Positions 1-6,866 of a stretch of DNA of 6,866 nucleotides are shown here, piece after piece. Below the pieces are notes generated by a model. It ran no database searches. It was not told the DNA's origin and saw only the letters and a program-made list of their open reading frames with translations. The DNA lies in IMG/VR virus record IMGVR_UViG_2529292909_000014, one strand, 5' to 3'. Both the position numbers and the translations under genes were made by a program. The stretch is from a virus (Duplodnaviria; Heunggongvirae; Uroviricota; Caudoviricetes). The first letter of the stretch is position 1. Each line of letters opens with the position of its first letter.

Positions 1-206
1 TTATTGAAATTCAAGGGTAAAGGTTGCCGAAGCCCTCACCAGTCCCGGATTGACGGACTTCTGAGTTGACTTCAGACGAGCGGAGTAAGGCAAAATATTG
101 TTCTGTTCTGGTACCAGTGGGATCCACTGCATCCCGGCATGAAGATCATTCAGTTTCACCGGACGCATATTTGCGTCCAATATTTCTATTATAGCGCGGC
201 GATTTT

Positions 207-273
207 TTTGATACCGATTTGCATTTCATTTGATACCGCTGAAAAACGCCGATACGCAACTTATTTGATACTA
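207..273. repeat. Three direct copies of TTTGATAC (starting 207, 229, 264) plus a degenerate CCGATAC (249), downstream of the mom-like gene
   Basis: Read directly: tttgataccgatttg / tttgataccgctg / ccgatacgc / tttgatactaaatcggcg. Function unknown. Confidence 0.35.
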
Positions 274-317
274 AATCGGCGCTTTTCTTTTGAGTTTTAG
301 AATGAGTTTTTAAGCGT

Positions 318-1055
318 TCATTCACTCTCTTTCAAACCAGTTTTAACTGTTTGTGGTTTTGGGTAAGGCTGGACTTTGAATAGCTTTGTGTTAAGGCGTT
401 TTCTGGCTCTCTTGTCCAGAAACCGGATGTAACGAAACTGACGGAATTTATGAACACTGGCTCTGTCGATATTAGCCCGCAGATGTTCACCTCGCTGTCC
501 TCCTCGTTTGATTGCATTCTTGCAAATCTCGTGATACCACTCGCCATCAAGTTCATAGAATGTTGTTTCATGACTGCCTACATAATCAAAATTGCTTGCC
601 TGGTACACGACACCAAGACAGCCACAACGCTCATCTGCAAACGACTGAACCCACTGCACCTGCGGATAAAGTTGTCTGATTAGTTTGAGCGCGTAACTGA
701 TTGCCCTTGATTCGGAGTTTCTCGGCATACAGTCATGCAGCCATAACCGGTTAAGCTCCATATATTCGCGGTTCTGCGTGCCAGTTACGACGCGTGCACC
801 ATTGTTTGGATTAAGGGCATAACCCCATTGCATTACGCCAACCAGCTCCCGTTCTGAAAATATGCCCAGATGAAGGTAGGAATTATTTACGAAACGATGG
901 CTGTAATGTTTATTGACGACGACCAGCCGGGCCAGCCAGCAACTTATTGTCTCAACCCGTAACTCACGGGAGCCATAACCGACGATATTGTCGTTATAGT
1001 GAATAAGTTCAGGCGTGCTGATGATACGGGATGTAACTTGCTTTCTGTTCCCCAC
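318..1055 (-). CDS. mom: Mom-like DNA modification (anti-restriction) protein, about 245 aa; proposed GTG start at 1055
   Basis: Long minus-strand ORF immediately downstream of and overlapping the com homologue, as in phage Mu. The track ORF starts at ATG 1250 but would overlap com entirely; there is no in-frame ATG after com. GTG at 1055-1053 is preceded by AAGGA about 9 nt upstream and gives a Mu-Mom-like size. Identity rests on com linkage and size, not on aligned Mom sequence. Confidence 0.6.
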
Positions 1056-1209
1056 GACAGGATTTCCTTGTGTATGTGGGGTGCTCTGTGGCGCTCTGAG
1101 ATGTGATTTGATTGAGGGTTTTACAGCGCGGACATTTAACTTCCAGATAACTGAAGCTGGCTCGTGCCAGTAGCTTGTTACAATGTCGGCACCGTATGTT
1201 TCGATACAT
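1009..1209 (-). CDS. com: Com-like zinc-finger translational activator of mom, 66 aa
   Basis: [14 protein letters not shown]...EVKCPRCK...EHPT matches the phage Mu Com pattern (IRCKNCNKLL...IRCPRCK...EHPT) as recalled. Strong SD AGGAGG about 8 nt upstream of ATG 1209. The 81-aa track ORF from 1254 is an in-frame upstream extension without an RBS. Confidence 0.85.
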
Positions 1210-1252
1210 GGCCGCATAACCTCCTGCTTTGTTGTTGATATCTTTATCACTC

Positions 1253-1277
1253 AATCGATCGACAAAAACGATCGATT
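1253..1277. promoter_or_regulatory. Perfect 9-bp inverted repeat AATCGATCG-N7-CGATCGATT with two Dam (GATC) sites, 44 bp upstream of com; third GATC (TGATCA) at 1339-1342
   Basis: Palindrome read directly. In Mu, mom transcription depends on Dam methylation of upstream GATC sites (established knowledge), so a methylation-sensitive operator is a reasonable inference. Confidence 0.45.
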
Positions 1278-1465
1278 TGATTTATTTAATTGATACAACA
1301 AATAACACGAAATGTCATTAGCGAAAATTTATGAGTTTGATCACTAATTTTAAACGGTGCTGTAACGCATAAGTGCTGAATGATTGTACATTTGAATACC
1401 GCAAAGCAAACAAATCAACTAATTTATAGAAGTCAATTGGTTAATTGCCAGCGTAAGAGGCTGCT

Positions 1466-1759
1466 ATGGACAATCATGTAACGACGAGAAATCGAAAAAT
1501 GATTGAAAATGCGGAAATCTATAATGATTATTTTTCCGATTATTCAGATGCCTGCAAATACAGTTCGAGTGCGGGAGAGTTCATATGCTTCAACTTTTTT
1601 ATTAAATCTTATGTTTTTCCTCCACAGCAAGAAGATGGAGGTGTGCCACCTCCTGAAATCACTTTGCACCGTATAGCCTCCGTCTCAATGATGGAGCAAC
1701 AGGCTAATGAGCTGTATAGCATTCTGGGAACGATTCTACAAAAGCGTGAATCGGACTAA
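1466..1759 (+). CDS. Hypothetical protein, 97 aa, divergent from com-mom
   Basis: ORF with SD AAGAGG 6 nt upstream of the ATG; no recognisable motif. Confidence 0.5.
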   Translation: MDNHVTTRNRKMIENAEIYNDYFSDYSDACKYSSSAGEFICFNFFIKSYVFPPQQEDGGVPPPEITLHRIASVSMMEQQANELYSILGTILQKRESD

Positions 1760-1893
1760 TGATACCGGTTCATTTGCCTGCCCGGATGGGGAAGCAGGAT
1801 TGACTGCTCCATAAGCAGCTATATTTCTGAATACGAAATACTATCCAGCGATTACATATGGCTGGATAGCGGCAAAGATGTTTTCATTAGTGT

Positions 1894-1921
1894 CAAACCG
1901 GCAGAGGACACCACCGGTTTG
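1894..1921. terminator. Stem-loop CAAACCGG-N12-CCGGTTTG 5 nt after the stop of the 84-aa gene; a second hairpin CTATCCAGC-N11-GCTGGATAG lies at 1841-1869
   Basis: Inverted repeats read directly; no clean U-tract on either strand, so terminator function is uncertain. Confidence 0.3.
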
Positions 1922-1926
1922 TATTG

Positions 1927-2181
1927 TTACATCATGGTACTGTCAGTTCCGGGCTGAGCCGGGTCTGGTTGCTCTGGCTGCGCGTCGGTTTTCGGCTCAT
2001 TATCAGCATCACTGGCCGCAACTGCTGGCCCAATAAGTTTTGCCAGCACTTCATCAACGTAAGTGTCGATTTGTGCCTCAAAATCCTTGCGGACCTGCGC
2101 TTTCAGCAACTTATTTACTTCACCGGAATACAGTGCCTGTTTTACCAGGTCTTCAGTGACGGTGCCTTTAATTTCTGGCAT
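1927..2181 (-). CDS. Hypothetical small acidic protein, 84 aa
   Basis: Strong SD AAGGAGGA 6-7 nt upstream of the ATG; helical N-terminal half, acidic and Pro-rich tail. Confidence 0.65.
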   Translation of the reverse strand: MPEIKGTVTEDLVKQALYSGEVNKLLKAQVRKDFEAQIDTYVDEVLAKLIGPAVAASDADNEPKTDAQPEQPDPAQPGTDSTMM

Positions 2182-2216
2182 GTATATCCTCCTTATGCGG
2201 GAATAAAGCCCTGCAA

Positions 2217-2420
2217 TCAGGGCTGGGTCGGGTCTTTTGGGAGCGGAGTTACCTGCGCTGTTTTACTGAGTTTTTCAGCTGCTGCGTCCTCAATTTTGCG
2301 GCGAACATAATTTCTGATGGCCTTATAACCACCACTCACCAGATATAACGCACATACTGCCGTGCAGAAATACAATAAATAAGCTGTAAAAATGTCATTA
2401 TCCCTCCCAATTATTGACAT
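2217..2420 (-). CDS. Hypothetical small single-pass membrane protein, 67 aa as written; start uncertain
   Basis: Hydrophobic stretch FTAYLLYFCTAVCALYLV followed by basic residues; sits 35 nt upstream of the 84-aa gene. ATG 2420 has no good SD, whereas ATG 2398 has SD GGGAGGG but is one base out of frame (see findings). Confidence 0.4.
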   Translation of the reverse strand: MSIIGRDNDIFTAYLLYFCTAVCALYLVSGGYKAIRNYVRRKIEDAAAEKLSKTAQVTPLPKDPTQP

Positions 2421-2494
2421 GGTGTTGACACCGGTAATATCTGTTAGGTAAAAAGGTGCACTGCATTTTTTGCTTTGGATATAACGATCTTTTT

Positions 2495-2535
2495 GCCGCC
2501 GGTTTCTTGTTTTCCCTTACCGGCGGCATTTTTTT
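2495..2535 (+). terminator. Rho-independent terminator, plus orientation: GCCGCCGGT-N15-ACCGGCGGC followed by T7
   Basis: 9-bp GC-rich stem followed by ATTTTTTT on the plus strand; on the minus strand the stem is followed by AAAAAG, so it is unidirectional and opposite to the flanking genes. Confidence 0.6.
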
Positions 2536-2542
2536 ATCCTGC

Positions 2543-4597
2543 TTACGCGTTATTCACTTCCACCACGATACTGTCAATCAGTACCGGGTAAGTCGCATTT
2601 TTAGTGATATCGGTCACGCGCAACTTGTCTGCCGTAAACGTGCCGACCGGAGACTGCGACAGCATGAATGGTGTCCCGTCCTTACCATCAATGACCGGCG
2701 TCACCTCAATACTGTTGTTACCGGCAAAACGGAAGCCCAGCGTATGCCATTCGTTATTAAATGCGCCGAATGACCCCAGCTTCGTGTTCTGCGCCGTGTT
2801 TCCTTTGTGATACATCACGTTAAGGTCTGTGGCATCGCTCTGTACGTAGAACGATGCCAGCAGGTTATGACCGGCATTTCCTTCCAGAGTAACCCCTTGC
2901 GGCAGGGCAGAAACCGGCCAGTACAGCGCCAGTGCGTACTGATTAGCCGTAAGCGCGCCATCGAGTTTAAAACGACAACTGACAAGACCACCTTTACCCA
3001 GCAGGTCCGCACCATTACCAGCATCATGCTCAAGGTACCAGGGGGCTCTTCCTGTTTCCTTGGTCAGTTTCATTGCCTTACCCCCGCTGGCTCCGGCATC
3101 ATCCACGATTTGAGCCTTGCCACCTCCGGCAGCCCAACCCTGTGGTGTCAACCGTCCTTCAGACTCAGATGCCCGGTAAGCAAATAGCGTACTCATCGTC
3201 GTGGTGTCTGCGGGTGGCGTGGACGGTTTTGATGGTGTATCAGGTGACGGCTTCTCATCCGGTGGTGTCACGGTCTGCCCGCGCATCAGTTCAGCCGTGC
3301 GCCCTGCATGGAGCATAATAGCTGAGGCCAGACGGTCTGAAATGACGCCCCTGCGTGCCCATGAGCTGAAATGGCTGTCACGCTGTGTCGAAACAAAACT
3401 GCCCTGGGTTCGGGATGCTGCACCGTAATACCCGACAGCCACAATATCCGGGTCTTCCGCCGGAGCATTCGTTGGCGTGCTCTGTCCATTCTCATCCGTC
3501 AGGAACGGTACAAAGAAAATTTTCTGTGCTTCCTTGCCTTTGTAGCCACCGTATACTGCCTCATATTTATCGGTGCCAGCGTTTTTCCAGTAATACGTGG
3601 TATCACCGCAAATCCACGGCACCGTGGTGGCATTTCCACTCACGCACTGCGCAGCAAGCGGAGCCAGGTCAGTTCTGAACTGCTGAACCATGGCCGTGAA
3701 TAAACTATTATGCTGCTGGCTTCCTGAGGCAAGGTCTGCCTCTCCCTGCATCCAGACCACAGCCAGAAGTTTGTTTTCGGGTTTTTCGCCAGCGCGACTT
3801 TGGTGCGGCTTACCAGGTCCTGATACAGAGGTTTACCGGCCCCCCAGCGTGAAGAATCAGCGGAAGCACCGCTGGCCTCACTGAATGAGCCGTCGGCTCC
3901 AGTGGTGAATGCTGACCCGCCACGACAACAGGGCACCAGAAGTATCCCGGCATTCTGTGGGATATAGGGAAGCAGTTTTTTGGCAATATGCAACCCCTGA
4001 CCGACAGTTCCCGTACTGGCCTTTTGCCAGATCAGCTTTCGGGTGGTTTATCCCGCTCATATCCTGAACATCATGCAGGCAGTGGTCTGCCGGAATGATG
4101 TCGTTGTATGTACACGACGTACCGTTGGGCGTTACCGTACTGCGGCGTGCCAGTTGCTTAATGCGTGGGTCCGGGCGGTCAAACGAATCCGGTAACGGCA
4201 GCCCCTCGCCGTAGGCCATGCCATTTGACTGACCCGCGAGAATGACAACAAAGTAATATTCCGGCTCTGAACTGCTGCCATTCGTGCTACCGGAAGGCCC
4301 GGCGTTATCCGGTGCATTCCAGTCGGAGGGCGTGAGCGTTCCGGCCACGTCAGATGTGATTGGAATGATGCCAGTCACGCCTGAACTGGTGATTTCTGCA
4401 CTGGGATTACCGGATACCGGCATTACCCATAATGGCTCTTTCGTGCTGAAGCGGATCACGCAGTCTGCGAAGGTGATCCCCCCTTTATTACCCGAAGGGC
4501 GGAAAGGGCTTTCAATAAATGCCACCGTGCCACCGGCAACCTTGACTGAAAACTCTCCGGGCATGGCGGAGAGCATTTTCCACTTGGAGTCTGACAT
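2543..4597 (-). pseudogene. NanS-like sialate O-acetylesterase (SGNH/SASA family) with N- and C-terminal extensions; reading frame broken twice
   Basis: Track ORFs 3878..4597, 3640..3993 and 2543..3760 join into one protein carrying NanS-type motifs (ILAGQSNGMAYGEGLPLPD, VPCCRGGSAFT, VVWMQGEADL, GDTTYYWK, NAPAEDPD, SHFSSWARRGVISDR). Frame breaks: a 1-bp insertion near 4008-4012 and a 1-bp deletion in the T-run 3774-3777. Confidence 0.8.
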
Positions 4598-4672
4598 CGT
4601 CTTTTCTGCCTGTTTCTGAATTAAACAGAGTCAGAATAGCGACCGCTGAAAAATATGTGTTTTGCGGAAATT

Positions 4673-4702
4673 CAAAAAAGCGTCACGGTACTTTTGGTGA
4701 CG
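4673..4702 (-). terminator. Possible terminator at the end of the invertase gene: CGTCAC-N10-GTGACG followed by CTTTTTTG
   Basis: 6-bp stem overlapping the invertase stop codon, followed by a U6 tract on the minus strand; the stem is short. Confidence 0.35.
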
Positions 4703-5253
4703 GAGCTGGTGAGGCAGGAAAATAACGATAAAGGGTGGAAAGGCCAATATCAAATATCAGTGCGATTTGTTTACGGGACTCGCCATTAGCCAGCAAACGG
4801 GCGATTTGCTCCCGCTCTTTCTCTGTCAGTTTCTGAGGTCTGCCGCCATGACGCCCTGAGCACGGGCAGCAGCAAGACCCGCGCGTGTACGTTCAATAAT
4901 GAGTTCCCGCTCCATTTCCGCCAGCGCGCCCATTATATGGAAAAAGAAACGTCCCATGGGAGTGGATGTATCAATATTGTCCGTAATGCTGCGGAAGTTA
5001 ACGCCGCGTTGCCGGAGTTCTTCTGTTAAAAGGACAAGGTGCTGCATACTGCGTCCAAGGCGATCCAGTTTCCAGACCAGCAGGGTATCCCCTGGCCGGA
5101 GTCGCTTTAATGCGCGTTTAAGTCCGGGACGCTCCCTTGTCTTACCGCTTATTCTGTCTTCGAAAACAGCTCACATCCTGCACATTCCAGCGCATTTCTT
5201 TGTAGCGCCGTATTCTGGTCATTTGTTGACACCCTGATATACCCAATCAGCAT
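4683..5253 (-). pseudogene. Hin/Gin/Pin/Cin-family serine DNA invertase, disrupted by two 1-bp deletions
   Basis: Three frames read MLIGYIRVSTNDQNTALQRNALECAGCE / FEDRISGKTRERPGLKRALKRLRPGDTLLVWKLDRLGRSMQHL...FFFHIMGALAEMERELIIERTRAGLAAARAQG / GRHGGRPQKLTEKEREQIARLLANG..., together a full-length invertase. Deletions lie near 5161-5170 and 4850-4860. SD AAGGA upstream of ATG 5253. Confidence 0.85.
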
Positions 5254-5318
5254 ACGATTTCCTTATTATAAAAAGCCGGAATTGTCGCATGAGGAATAAA
5301 ACAGAGTTAATCCTGGCT

Positions 5319-5344
5319 TTCCTGAAAACCTCGGTTTACGGGAA
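5319..5344. other. Invertase crossover site, left: TTCCTGAAAACC-TC-GGTTTACGGGAA
   Basis: 26-bp imperfect palindrome; the left half differs from the hixL half-site TTCTTGAAAACC at one position and the whole site resembles gix. It lies 66 bp upstream of the invertase start. Confidence 0.7.
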
Positions 5345-5400
5345 ACGGTAAACAGGGCGGCGAATGCTCTGCCATCGGACGGCACCGCCGTTGCCGCGAA
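5333..5400. repeat. Inverted repeat, left arm (68 bp, one mismatch to the right arm)
   Basis: The reverse complement of 6580..6647 matches 5333..5400 except position 5368; patchy similarity continues inward to about 5451. Confidence 0.85.
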
Positions 5401-5692
5401 TAGACTCGCCACCCCAAGAAATATTAATGGGGTTCCCTTTGACGGGACGAAGGACATAAACATCACTTCTGGTATAACACAGCAGGATGCGGATTCCCGA
5501 TATATCCAGGATATCAGGCTGGGAGCAGAGAACAGGCAGGTAATGTACGGTGGGGCATATTACTCTGCGTACGGTAATGTTATGGCAGGCCTGCAGATTG
5601 ACAGTAAAGTTGATGCTTCAAACGATTTTATAGCATTCAGACCCCTGCAAAAATTAGTCGGAGGTACATGGATTACGGTATCTCAGTTATAA
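5342..5692 (+). CDS. Silent alternative tail-fibre C-terminal cassette (no start codon; expressible only after inversion fuses it to the constant part)
   Basis: Plus-strand frame is open from the crossover site to TAA 5690-5692 and encodes ...[40 protein letters not shown]...; no ATG or RBS at its 5' end; followed 51 bp later by tfa. Confidence 0.65.
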   Translation, partial: ETVNRAANALPSDGTAVAANRLATPRNINGVPFDGTKDINITSGITQQDADSRYIQDIRLGAENRQVMYGGAYYSAYGNVMAGLQIDSKVDASNDFIAFRPLQKLVGGTWITVSQL

Positions 5693-5743
5693 ATAGTCAG
5701 TAAATAATATATTTTAAAACAGATTTATTTCCAGGAGGATTTT

Positions 5744-6265
5744 ATGGAACTAAAAAATATAACCCGTTATTATCCTGAAAATATGCCATATGGTAATAAT
5801 GTTCAGTATTTCCAGAGTGAAGATGGTAAGGATTTCTACGAATCCCTGCCATTATTCACCAAAAAATATAAACTTTGCATAACACCTGACAGCGGCGTTA
5901 TCTGCTCAATATCACAGGACGCCTCGGCGCTGTATCCTGCGGGGTTTTCTGTGGTTGAGGTCGATGAACTCCCTGAAGGCACGGATATTTCAGGAAACTG
6001 GAAGTTTGATAATGGCATAATCTCCCGTATTCCGGTTAACTACGCAAGAAAACTGGAAGCAATGCGCCAGTCATATCTTAATCAGGCATATGAAAAAATT
6101 AATGACTGGAGAACGGAGCTACAACTGGGCACCATCAGCGATGAAGACAGAGCAGCACTTACCCAATGGATGGCATACATCAGTCAGGTGAAGAAAATGG
6201 AACTACCCGCCATTAAAACAGAAGCTGAATTTAACGCCATTAAATGGCCTGAGCAGCCACAGTAA
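5744..6265 (+). CDS. Tail-fibre assembly protein (Tfa/U family), 173 aa
   Basis: SD CAGGAGGA 6 nt upstream of the ATG; C-terminal ...DWRTELQLGTISDEDRAALTQWMAYISQV...IKWPEQP fits the conserved Tfa C-terminal pattern. Confidence 0.85.
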   Translation: MELKNITRYYPENMPYGNNVQYFQSEDGKDFYESLPLFTKKYKLCITPDSGVICSISQDASALYPAGFSVVEVDELPEGTDISGNWKFDNGIISRIPVNYARKLEAMRQSYLNQAYEKINDWRTELQLGTISDEDRAALTQWMAYISQVKKMELPAIKTEAEFNAIKWPEQPQ

Positions 6266-6268
6266 TAA

Positions 6269-6288
6269 AGAAGGCCGGAAGGCCTTCT
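6269..6288. terminator. Hairpin AGAAGGCC-GGAA-GGCCTTCT between the convergent tfa and tail-fibre genes
   Basis: 8-bp stem with a tetraloop; minus-strand downstream sequence is U-rich (UUAUUACU); no clean U-tract on the plus strand. Confidence 0.45.
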
Positions 6289-6296
6289 GAATATCA

Positions 6297-6866
6297 TTAT
6301 ATACTTGCAGCCGTCACCCATGCTCCATTTAACAGATACTGCAACGGCCGGTAATACACGCCGCCGACGTTATCTGCCGTATTCTTACCGACATCCTGTA
6401 CTTTAATTCCGGTAAGAACATTGCCGCCCCCCAGATTCAGATCCCAGCTTTCCCATGTTCCGGGCATATGTGCGGTCACCGACCCCAGTCTTATGGCGGT
6501 TACTGTTCCTGATGAGATAGTGATATCCTGCGTCCCGTCAAAGGGAACACCATTAATTGTGTGGGCATTTGCCAGCCTGTTCGCGGCAACGGCGGTGCCG
6601 TCCGATGGCAGGGCATTCGCCGCCCTGTTTACCGTTTCCCGTAAACCGACGTTATCGATAAAAGCCCCTTTATCCGGAATGTCTGCGCCGTTCTGCTCCC
6701 TGCGCAGGTAACGGTTATCACCTTCGCTTTTGCTGTAAACATCCAGATTATTACGGGCGGTTCCCTTATTCTCCAGGTCGGCGAGATTCTGATCCTTCGC
6801 CAGGGCATTAACGTCAGCGGGACCAAGACCGTTTTTTGTGGCAAGCGTCCCCAGACCAAGATAACC
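6297..6866 (-). CDS. Tail-fibre protein, 3' part (5' end beyond the window), carrying the currently expressed tip
   Basis: Minus-strand frame is open from the window edge to TAA 6297-6299: [54 protein letters not shown]...[42 protein letters not shown]...AASI. Typical tail-fibre motifs; the crossover site is embedded at codons GLRE. Confidence 0.85.
6580..6647. repeat. Inverted repeat, right arm (68 bp)
   Basis: Reverse complement of 5333..5400 with one mismatch. Confidence 0.85.
6636..6661. other. Invertase crossover site, right: TTCCCGTAAACC-GA-CGTTATCGATAA
   Basis: Inner half is identical to the left site's inner half in inverted orientation and the core dinucleotide is complementary; the outer half has diverged. 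Lies inside the tail-fibre coding sequence. Confidence 0.65.

Follow-up and report, generated by a model that had tools for sequence, protein, structure and literature searches.

The right end of an Sp18-type Mu-like prophage carries a NanS-like esterase block between its invertase and com genes

We analyzed a 6,866-nt stretch of DNA (IMG/VR record IMGVR_UViG_2529292909_000014; hereafter the window) that holds the right end of a Mu-like prophage of the Sp18 type next to a part of the Escherichia coli fimbrial gene ydeS. An earlier note, made from the letters of the window, had proposed that a tail fibre gene, an invertible segment, an invertase gene, com and mom follow one another on the minus strand as at the right end of phage Mu, with unrelated lambdoid-style cargo between the invertase and com. 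All of these parts were recovered at their expected places through Pfam and PHROG matches and the list of open reading frames (ORFs). The cargo was found as well and consists of a NanS-like sialate O-acetylesterase gene, two small minus-strand genes of the DUF1378 and DUF826 families and one divergent ORF.

Tail fibre segment, invertase and com-mom module

The tail fibre gene (6297-6866, minus strand; PHROG 1833 tail fibre, E = 7e-141 for the full-length homolog; 293 amino acids in relatives) has its C-terminal variable part within the invertible segment, and its constant part runs off the window. The segment spans about 5332-6648 (1.3 kb), with inverted arms of about 150 bp at 5324-5472 and 6508-6656. 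A pattern search with the Gin/Hin/Pin/Cin crossover consensus, which describes sites of 26-27 bp, returned three matches compared to 0.01 expected. The left gix-like crossover site, TTCCTGAAAACCTCGGTTTACGGGAA (5318-5345), overlaps a stretch that is identical to the left boundary of the Mu G segment at 33 of 34 positions (window 5325-5358; 97% over 34 bp), while the right site (6635-6661), located within the tail fibre gene, falls in a stretch with 87% identity to the right G boundary (window 6624-6661). The two sites are inverted relative to each other and both display a TC core when aligned. Around the G boundary, window 6608-6693 and Mu S also share 80% identity. The segment had the same orientation as in the window in all copies fetched.

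The left arm lies in a silent alternative C-terminal segment of the tail fibre (5318-5692, plus strand; the Sv' equivalent), which in relatives goes under the name 'phage tail protein, missing N-terminus' and has the inverted arm in common with the expressed fibre gene; after inversion, it would join the constant part. Also within the segment is a tail fibre assembly protein gene (5744-6265, plus strand; Caudo_TAP, E = 5e-19; PHROG 136 tail fibre assembly, E = 5e-56). This is the only assembly gene in the segment (window 5744-6300), compared to two in that of Mu, and its partner is the fibre end that is currently silent. No assembly gene follows the expressed end (6297-6508, minus strand), a departure from the S-U and U'-S' pairs of Mu.

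Next to the segment is a gene for a Gin-like serine DNA invertase (4683-5253, minus strand), which tblastn detected in three frames because of two frameshifts in the window, at 4854 and 5163. The intact protein (190 amino acids; WP_000904914.1, present in the related loci L004 and L005) contains Resolvase and HTH_7 domains and is 74% identical to Mu Gin. Such an invertase would flip the 1.3-kb segment between the two gix-like sites, exchanging the tail fibre's C-terminal part and, with it, the host range.

At the other end of the module, mom (318-1055, minus strand; 245 amino acids, GTG start) encodes a DNA adenine modification enzyme (Pfam Mom PF25680, E = 1.6e-77) that is 78% identical to Mu Mom and is named Mom in RefSeq relatives. 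Its start is overlapped, as in Mu, by com (1009-1209, minus strand; Pfam Zn_ribbon_Com, E = 1.3e-12), the zinc-ribbon translational activator of mom, and the GUG codon of mom lies in a weakly predicted hairpin (z = -1.3). Com would activate translation of the overlapping mom, the product of which would modify phage DNA against restriction. Three GATC sites are found in the control region upstream of the two genes (1250-1345, minus strand), comprising a palindrome AATCGATCG-N7-CGATCGATT at 1253-1277 and a further GATC at 1339-1342. The palindrome can be aligned with Mu, in the sequence that immediately precedes com there, and the boundary of the cargo on this Mu side is sharp. Control of mom by Dam and OxyR is known for Mu, and by analogy the GATC sites of the window may serve the same control.

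The likeness to the right end of Mu therefore extends over gene order and strand, the gix boundary, Gin, Mom, the Com zinc ribbon overlapping mom and the GATC palindrome, which bears out the Mu-like arrangement that had been proposed. A clear difference is the distance between gin and com, which is 94 bp in Mu compared to about 3.5 kb of extra genes in the window, measured from the invertase stop at 4683 to the com start at 1209. The presence of the cargo had thus been correctly predicted, while its length had been put too low, at 2.8 kb.

A variant of the mom slot was observed in GenBank record LC727881, an Sp18-like phage of Shiga toxin (Stx)-producing E. coli (STEC). In this record, a 350-amino acid cytosine-5 DNA methyltransferase (L003 842-1894; PF00145, E = 2e-42) replaces mom, and identity on the com side remains 92% (window 1042-1318). 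The exchange is of one DNA-modification gene with an anti-restriction role for another at the same slot.

Prophage terminus, insertion sites and full-length relatives

The first 189 bp of the window are the 3' part of ydeS (1-189, minus strand), cut by the insertion. This flank is 100% identical to ydeS in more than 5,000 E. coli genomes, and the match ends at position 189. An empty ydeS reads ...tatttctat|acccaa at this point and the window reads ...tatttctat|TATAGCG. The right end of the prophage (190-290, the attR equivalent) begins here with the terminus TATAGCGCGGCG, 128 bp from the mom stop codon. From 190 onward, the window is 99.8-99.9% identical to sequence in 21 complete genomes. Among the near-identical copies that were opened, the neighboring host sequence was ypdB, a ydcF-family gene beside cmoM or a JAB-domain gene in an island, and more distant relatives adjoin yegX, a fimbrial gene or an Stx phage gene; all seven junctions, each in a different host gene, start alike. 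Counting ydeS, the near-identical 6.7 kb has this start in at least four host genes.

Both ends of complete copies were then compared with each other (L001 19998-20013 and 30452-30470; L003 674-690 and 40636-40655; L008 3997-4012 with L009 30305-30320; L011 794-810 and 39519-39535; window junction at 186-201). A 4-bp target duplication was present in four of four (CAGT, GATG, CGCG and AACG), and the LC727881 record likewise annotates a duplication of 4 bp. The motif TTTGATAC is repeated three times close to the terminus in the window (207-214, 229-236 and 264-271; 0.23 expected) and, inverted, three times in the last 170 bp of the opposite end of the full-length relative L011. These repeats, which are of another motif than the end repeats of Mu, are candidate transposase-binding sites at which the transposase of the element would act.

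The same right terminus was found on a 39-kb element in O157:H7 strain 7409 and in strain 2009C-3554, the other end of which reads ...CCTGGTTACA. These relatives encode a repressor-side gene, a helix-turn-helix (HTH) protein, a Mu transposase, an AAA ATPase at the position of MuB, Gam and Mor, followed by lysis, head, tail and baseplate genes. Their right end is ordered as in the window, with the esterase (WP_010917876.1 in both O157-type copies opened), DUF1378, DUF826, the divergent ORF, com and mom included. No integrase is annotated inside the element in the full-length relatives, and no attachment (att) site is annotated either. Inspection of the flanks, suggested in the earlier note as a way to tell transposable-phage ends from an att site with integrase, therefore revealed a Mu-type end at 190, supported by the seven junctions, the terminal repeats and the transposase of the full-length relatives.

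Published work treats Sp18 of O157 Sakai as a Mu-like prophage that is intact and has an invertible region for host specificity, with genes unlike those of Mu (PMC2669165), and Sp18-like phages occur at variable sites, some of them within Stx phages (PMC10132054). The window resembles Sp18 of O157:H7 Sakai and the Sp18-like STEC phages (LC727881) in the terminal sequences at both ends, in the gene order from tail fibre to mom and in being inserted at variable sites flanked by a short duplication. DNA identity to the O157 Sp18 type is 94.7% across attR, mom and com and 89% across the constant part of the fibre gene, whereas it drops to about 67-79% over about 1319-6500, which comprises DUF826/DUF1378, the esterase with the invertase and the assembly gene. 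Within that range, 1319-1897 is unrelated, as the slot of the divergent ORF holds a different gene. The Sp18-type right end in the window adds to a family that has already been described, and near-identical copies are already in RefSeq; its sublineage is present in about 22 of 5,426 complete genomes.

On this evidence, 6.7 kb of the window are very probably the right-hand portion of an Sp18-type, Mu-like transposable prophage that entered the host fimbrial gene ydeS of E. coli by transposition. It is read as one transposable element and not as two neighbors because of the homologies to Mu, the start shared in different host genes and the full-length relatives with target duplications. The opposite arrangement, in which a lambdoid remnant with the esterase, DUF1378 and DUF826 genes lies beside or within a separate Mu remnant, could draw on the order of these genes, which is that of Stx phages, and on the uneven G+C content of the window (53-58% across the esterase compared to 35-48% across mom, com and the assembly gene). 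We give it almost no credence, as copies located in different host genes contain 190-6866 without a break at 99.8-99.9% identity, the block lies inside complete 39-kb relatives bounded by duplications, no lambdoid gene beyond these three is present and neither an att site nor an integrase is annotated. The com-mom and invertase regions, which flanking sequence might have assigned to different adjacent elements, belong to one element because the full-length 39-kb relatives show the same right-end order within one element, and 190-6866 moves as one piece. We therefore regard the annotation question as settled in favor of a single Sp18-family transposable prophage disrupting ydeS over a patchwork of neighbors.

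Several observations weigh against this reading of the window. The right 3' terminus of Sp18-type elements is TA and the duplication 4 bp, compared to a CA 3' terminus and a 5-bp target duplication for Mu. The window shows the right end only, and the transposase genes, the left end and the CTAT duplication expected in ydeS lie beyond it. Promoter and terminator scans of the cargo genes remained at chance level with no prediction standing out. Finally, if the single-base indels described below are real, this copy is incapable of inverting its segment and of producing active esterase. A 5-bp duplication with an element beginning at ATAGCG was considered and rejected, as both ydeS in the window and the Stx-phage site show the terminal T at a position that is A in the empty target. 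Given the TA terminus and the 4-bp duplication, the transposition chemistry of the Sp18-type prophage therefore differs in detail from that of Mu, and the lineage appears to depart to this small extent from the Mu paradigm.

A shortened form of the same prophage was observed in strain DLI.5a, where it lies in ypdB (L001 20002-30461). This 10.4-kb internally deleted derivative keeps both ends and the 4-bp duplication and retains the right-end genes and the repressor side, while the transposase and most structural genes have been lost, so that it is a natural mini-Mu in form.

Esterase block and its N-terminal domain

The largest cargo gene (2543-4597, minus strand; 684 amino acids when intact, WP_001284083.1) encodes a NanS-p-like sialate O-acetylesterase with three domains: one specific to this lineage at the N terminus (about residues 1-105), the catalytic NanS/SASA domain and, at the C terminus, the lectin-like DUF6645. 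Residues 110-428 of the intact protein match NanS (3PT5; E = 2e-117) and include the GQSN motif, while residues 469-683 match the C-terminal domain of NanS-p (6YP6; E = 7e-98; DUF6645 PF20350, E = 7e-68). Downstream are the DUF1378 gene (2217-2420, minus strand; PF07125, E = 1e-27) and the DUF826 gene (1927-2181, minus strand; PF05696, E = 6e-16). In an Stx phage, the order after stxB is SASA esterase, small ORF, DUF1378, DUF826 and holin, and the window has the same three-gene order. The Stx-phage NanS-p proteins (933W L0105 and phi24B gp84) also share the NanS/SASA and DUF6645 domains with the window protein. Their block sits between the stx and lysis genes of a lambdoid phage, whereas that of the window sits beside the invertase and com of a myovirus-type transposable phage.

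The mosaic assembly with lambdoid-style cargo proposed in the earlier note is supported by this esterase-DUF1378-DUF826 block, with the qualification that the block is old and lineage-wide and that the N-terminal domain of its esterase is not lambdoid. A recent private capture from a resident Stx-type lambdoid phage could be imagined, as E. coli has an abundance of lambdoid phages with the block (the esterase occurs in 349 phage records). However, identity to the Stx-phage versions is low, at 66% for the esterase protein (from residue 94), 53% for DUF1378 and 39% for the DUF826 protein that precedes the holin, with about 69% at the DNA level. The two E. coli Mu-like sublineages are equally divergent from each other, with esterases 66% identical over the full length, the first 100 residues included, yet they share the position of the block and the N-terminal domain. 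The block is also present in the O157 Sp18 type and the LC727881 type. In a Mu-like prophage of Salmonella, the esterase alone occupies this position; its gene follows a resolvase and an invertible fibre segment at a distance of two small ORFs and lies beside Mu-type baseplate genes. A recent capture is thus very improbable. Judged by these sequence comparisons, the block is an old and stable part of the lineage and not a recent private insertion, and the mosaic event predates the lineage split because both divergent E. coli sublineages and the Salmonella Mu-like prophage share the position and the N-terminal domain. Sialate O-acetylesterase genes, which are usually discussed as companions of Shiga toxin in lambdoid phages, are accordingly also stable in Mu-like phages of Escherichia and Salmonella. 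A related esterase gene was in addition found beside the lysis genes of a P2-like phage.

NanS-p enzymes have been reported to deacetylate 9-O-acetyl sialic acids (PMC10462455, PMC8065619). The esterase of the Mu-like lineage would most likely remove O-acetyl groups from the sialic acids of gut mucin in the same manner, and either the lysogen or the released phage may benefit from this deacetylation, as proposed for NanS-p. Our literature search found no paper linking nanS-p to Mu-like phages or Sp18.

The Mu-like and Stx-phage esterases differ at their N termini. Whereas Stx-phage NanS-p has a DUF1737 domain, the Mu-like esterase carries an unrelated all-beta domain of about 100 amino acids. 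No DUF1737 (PF08410) was detected in the intact protein at E <= 0.01, compared to E = 2.6e-17 for the Stx-phage protein in the same run, and the BLASTP alignment of the Mu-like esterase to NanS-p begins at residue 94. The N-terminal domain is common to the Mu-like versions only. Homology searches with the N-terminal 113 amino acids returned almost only fragments of the same protein and one 30%-identical protein of Salmonella enterica, in which the domain is fused to the same esterase, and gave no functional lead. An AlphaFold model from the single sequence of the domain was useless, with a predicted local distance difference test (pLDDT) score of 35. With a five-sequence alignment, residues 1-72 were modeled as all-beta at pLDDT 73-89. 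A Foldseek search against PDB and BFVD gave nothing better than E = 0.007, with weak cupin-like hits and small uncharacterized phage proteins only.

A 2026 preprint reports that the DUF1737 domain at the N terminus of phi24B NanS-p decorates capsid hexons (bioRxiv 10.64898/2026.04.10.717836). By analogy, the NanS-type esterase of Mu-like phages might be virion-associated, with its N-terminal beta domain anchoring it to the Mu-type particle as DUF1737 does on the phi24B capsid, although we consider this rather unlikely. If true, lambdoid, Mu-like and possibly P2-like virions would each hold the same mucin-targeting module by an anchor of their own. The different N-terminal domain of the Mu-like esterases in any case bears on whether the enzyme serves the phage particle or the lysogen. 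This lineage-specific domain and the 4-bp duplication with the TA terminus are the points worth keeping from the analysis.

State of this copy and smaller features

Compared to three independent genomes, the window contains five private single-base homopolymer indels (2377, 3774, 4008, 4854 and 5163) and two private substitutions (5450 and 6830). The indels at 4854 and 5163 place the invertase in three frames. In the esterase, a -1 change at 3774 is followed by a +1 change at 4008; the two compensate each other, leaving about 78 residues of the catalytic domain (about 197-275) scrambled. The DUF1378 gene lacks an A at 2377, which alters its first few codons.

If all five indels are real, the copy could be a decaying, immobile relic in which the invertase, esterase and DUF1378 genes are pseudogenes, a fossil comparable to the 10.4-kb DLI.5a remnant. 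The excess of private indels over private substitutions would fit such decay, as would the visible degradation of related copies by internal deletions, an IS66 insertion and rearrangement, and the DLI.5a copy has an invertase frameshift of its own. On the other side, all five indels lie in short homopolymer runs, the ratio of indels to substitutions is one that errors of long-read assembly typically leave, those in the esterase gene offset one another and the three independent genomes agree at all five sites. We consider decay plausible but the less probable explanation, and the pattern of the indels suggests assembly error.

The divergent small ORF (1466/1499-1759, plus strand; 86 amino acids from 1499 in relatives) occupies a variable slot. 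It had no match in Pfam, PHROGs, PADLOC or NCBIfam, and PADLOC and NCBIfam gave no match for the small cargo genes. In the slot between DUF826 and the mom control region (1319-1897), the O157 Sp18-type copy has an unrelated ORF of 154 amino acids, and neither protein matches any family. In the gap between the esterase and DUF1378 genes, Rfam returned Esr41, a small RNA of enterohemorrhagic E. coli (EHEC), at 2455-2537 on the plus strand. The hit scored 22 bits compared to a cut-off of 102 (E = 0.87), was absent in three relatives at E <= 0.01 and is probably due to chance.

Between the converging fibre and assembly genes, a G+C-rich palindromic hairpin (6269-6288) forms a terminator-like site and is likely a two-way terminator. 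Outside the window, full-length Sp18-type prophages have a 'tRNA-OTHER' in their RefSeq annotation, placed between the genes for head morphogenesis and virion morphogenesis (L009 12564-12644; L011 21778-21858).

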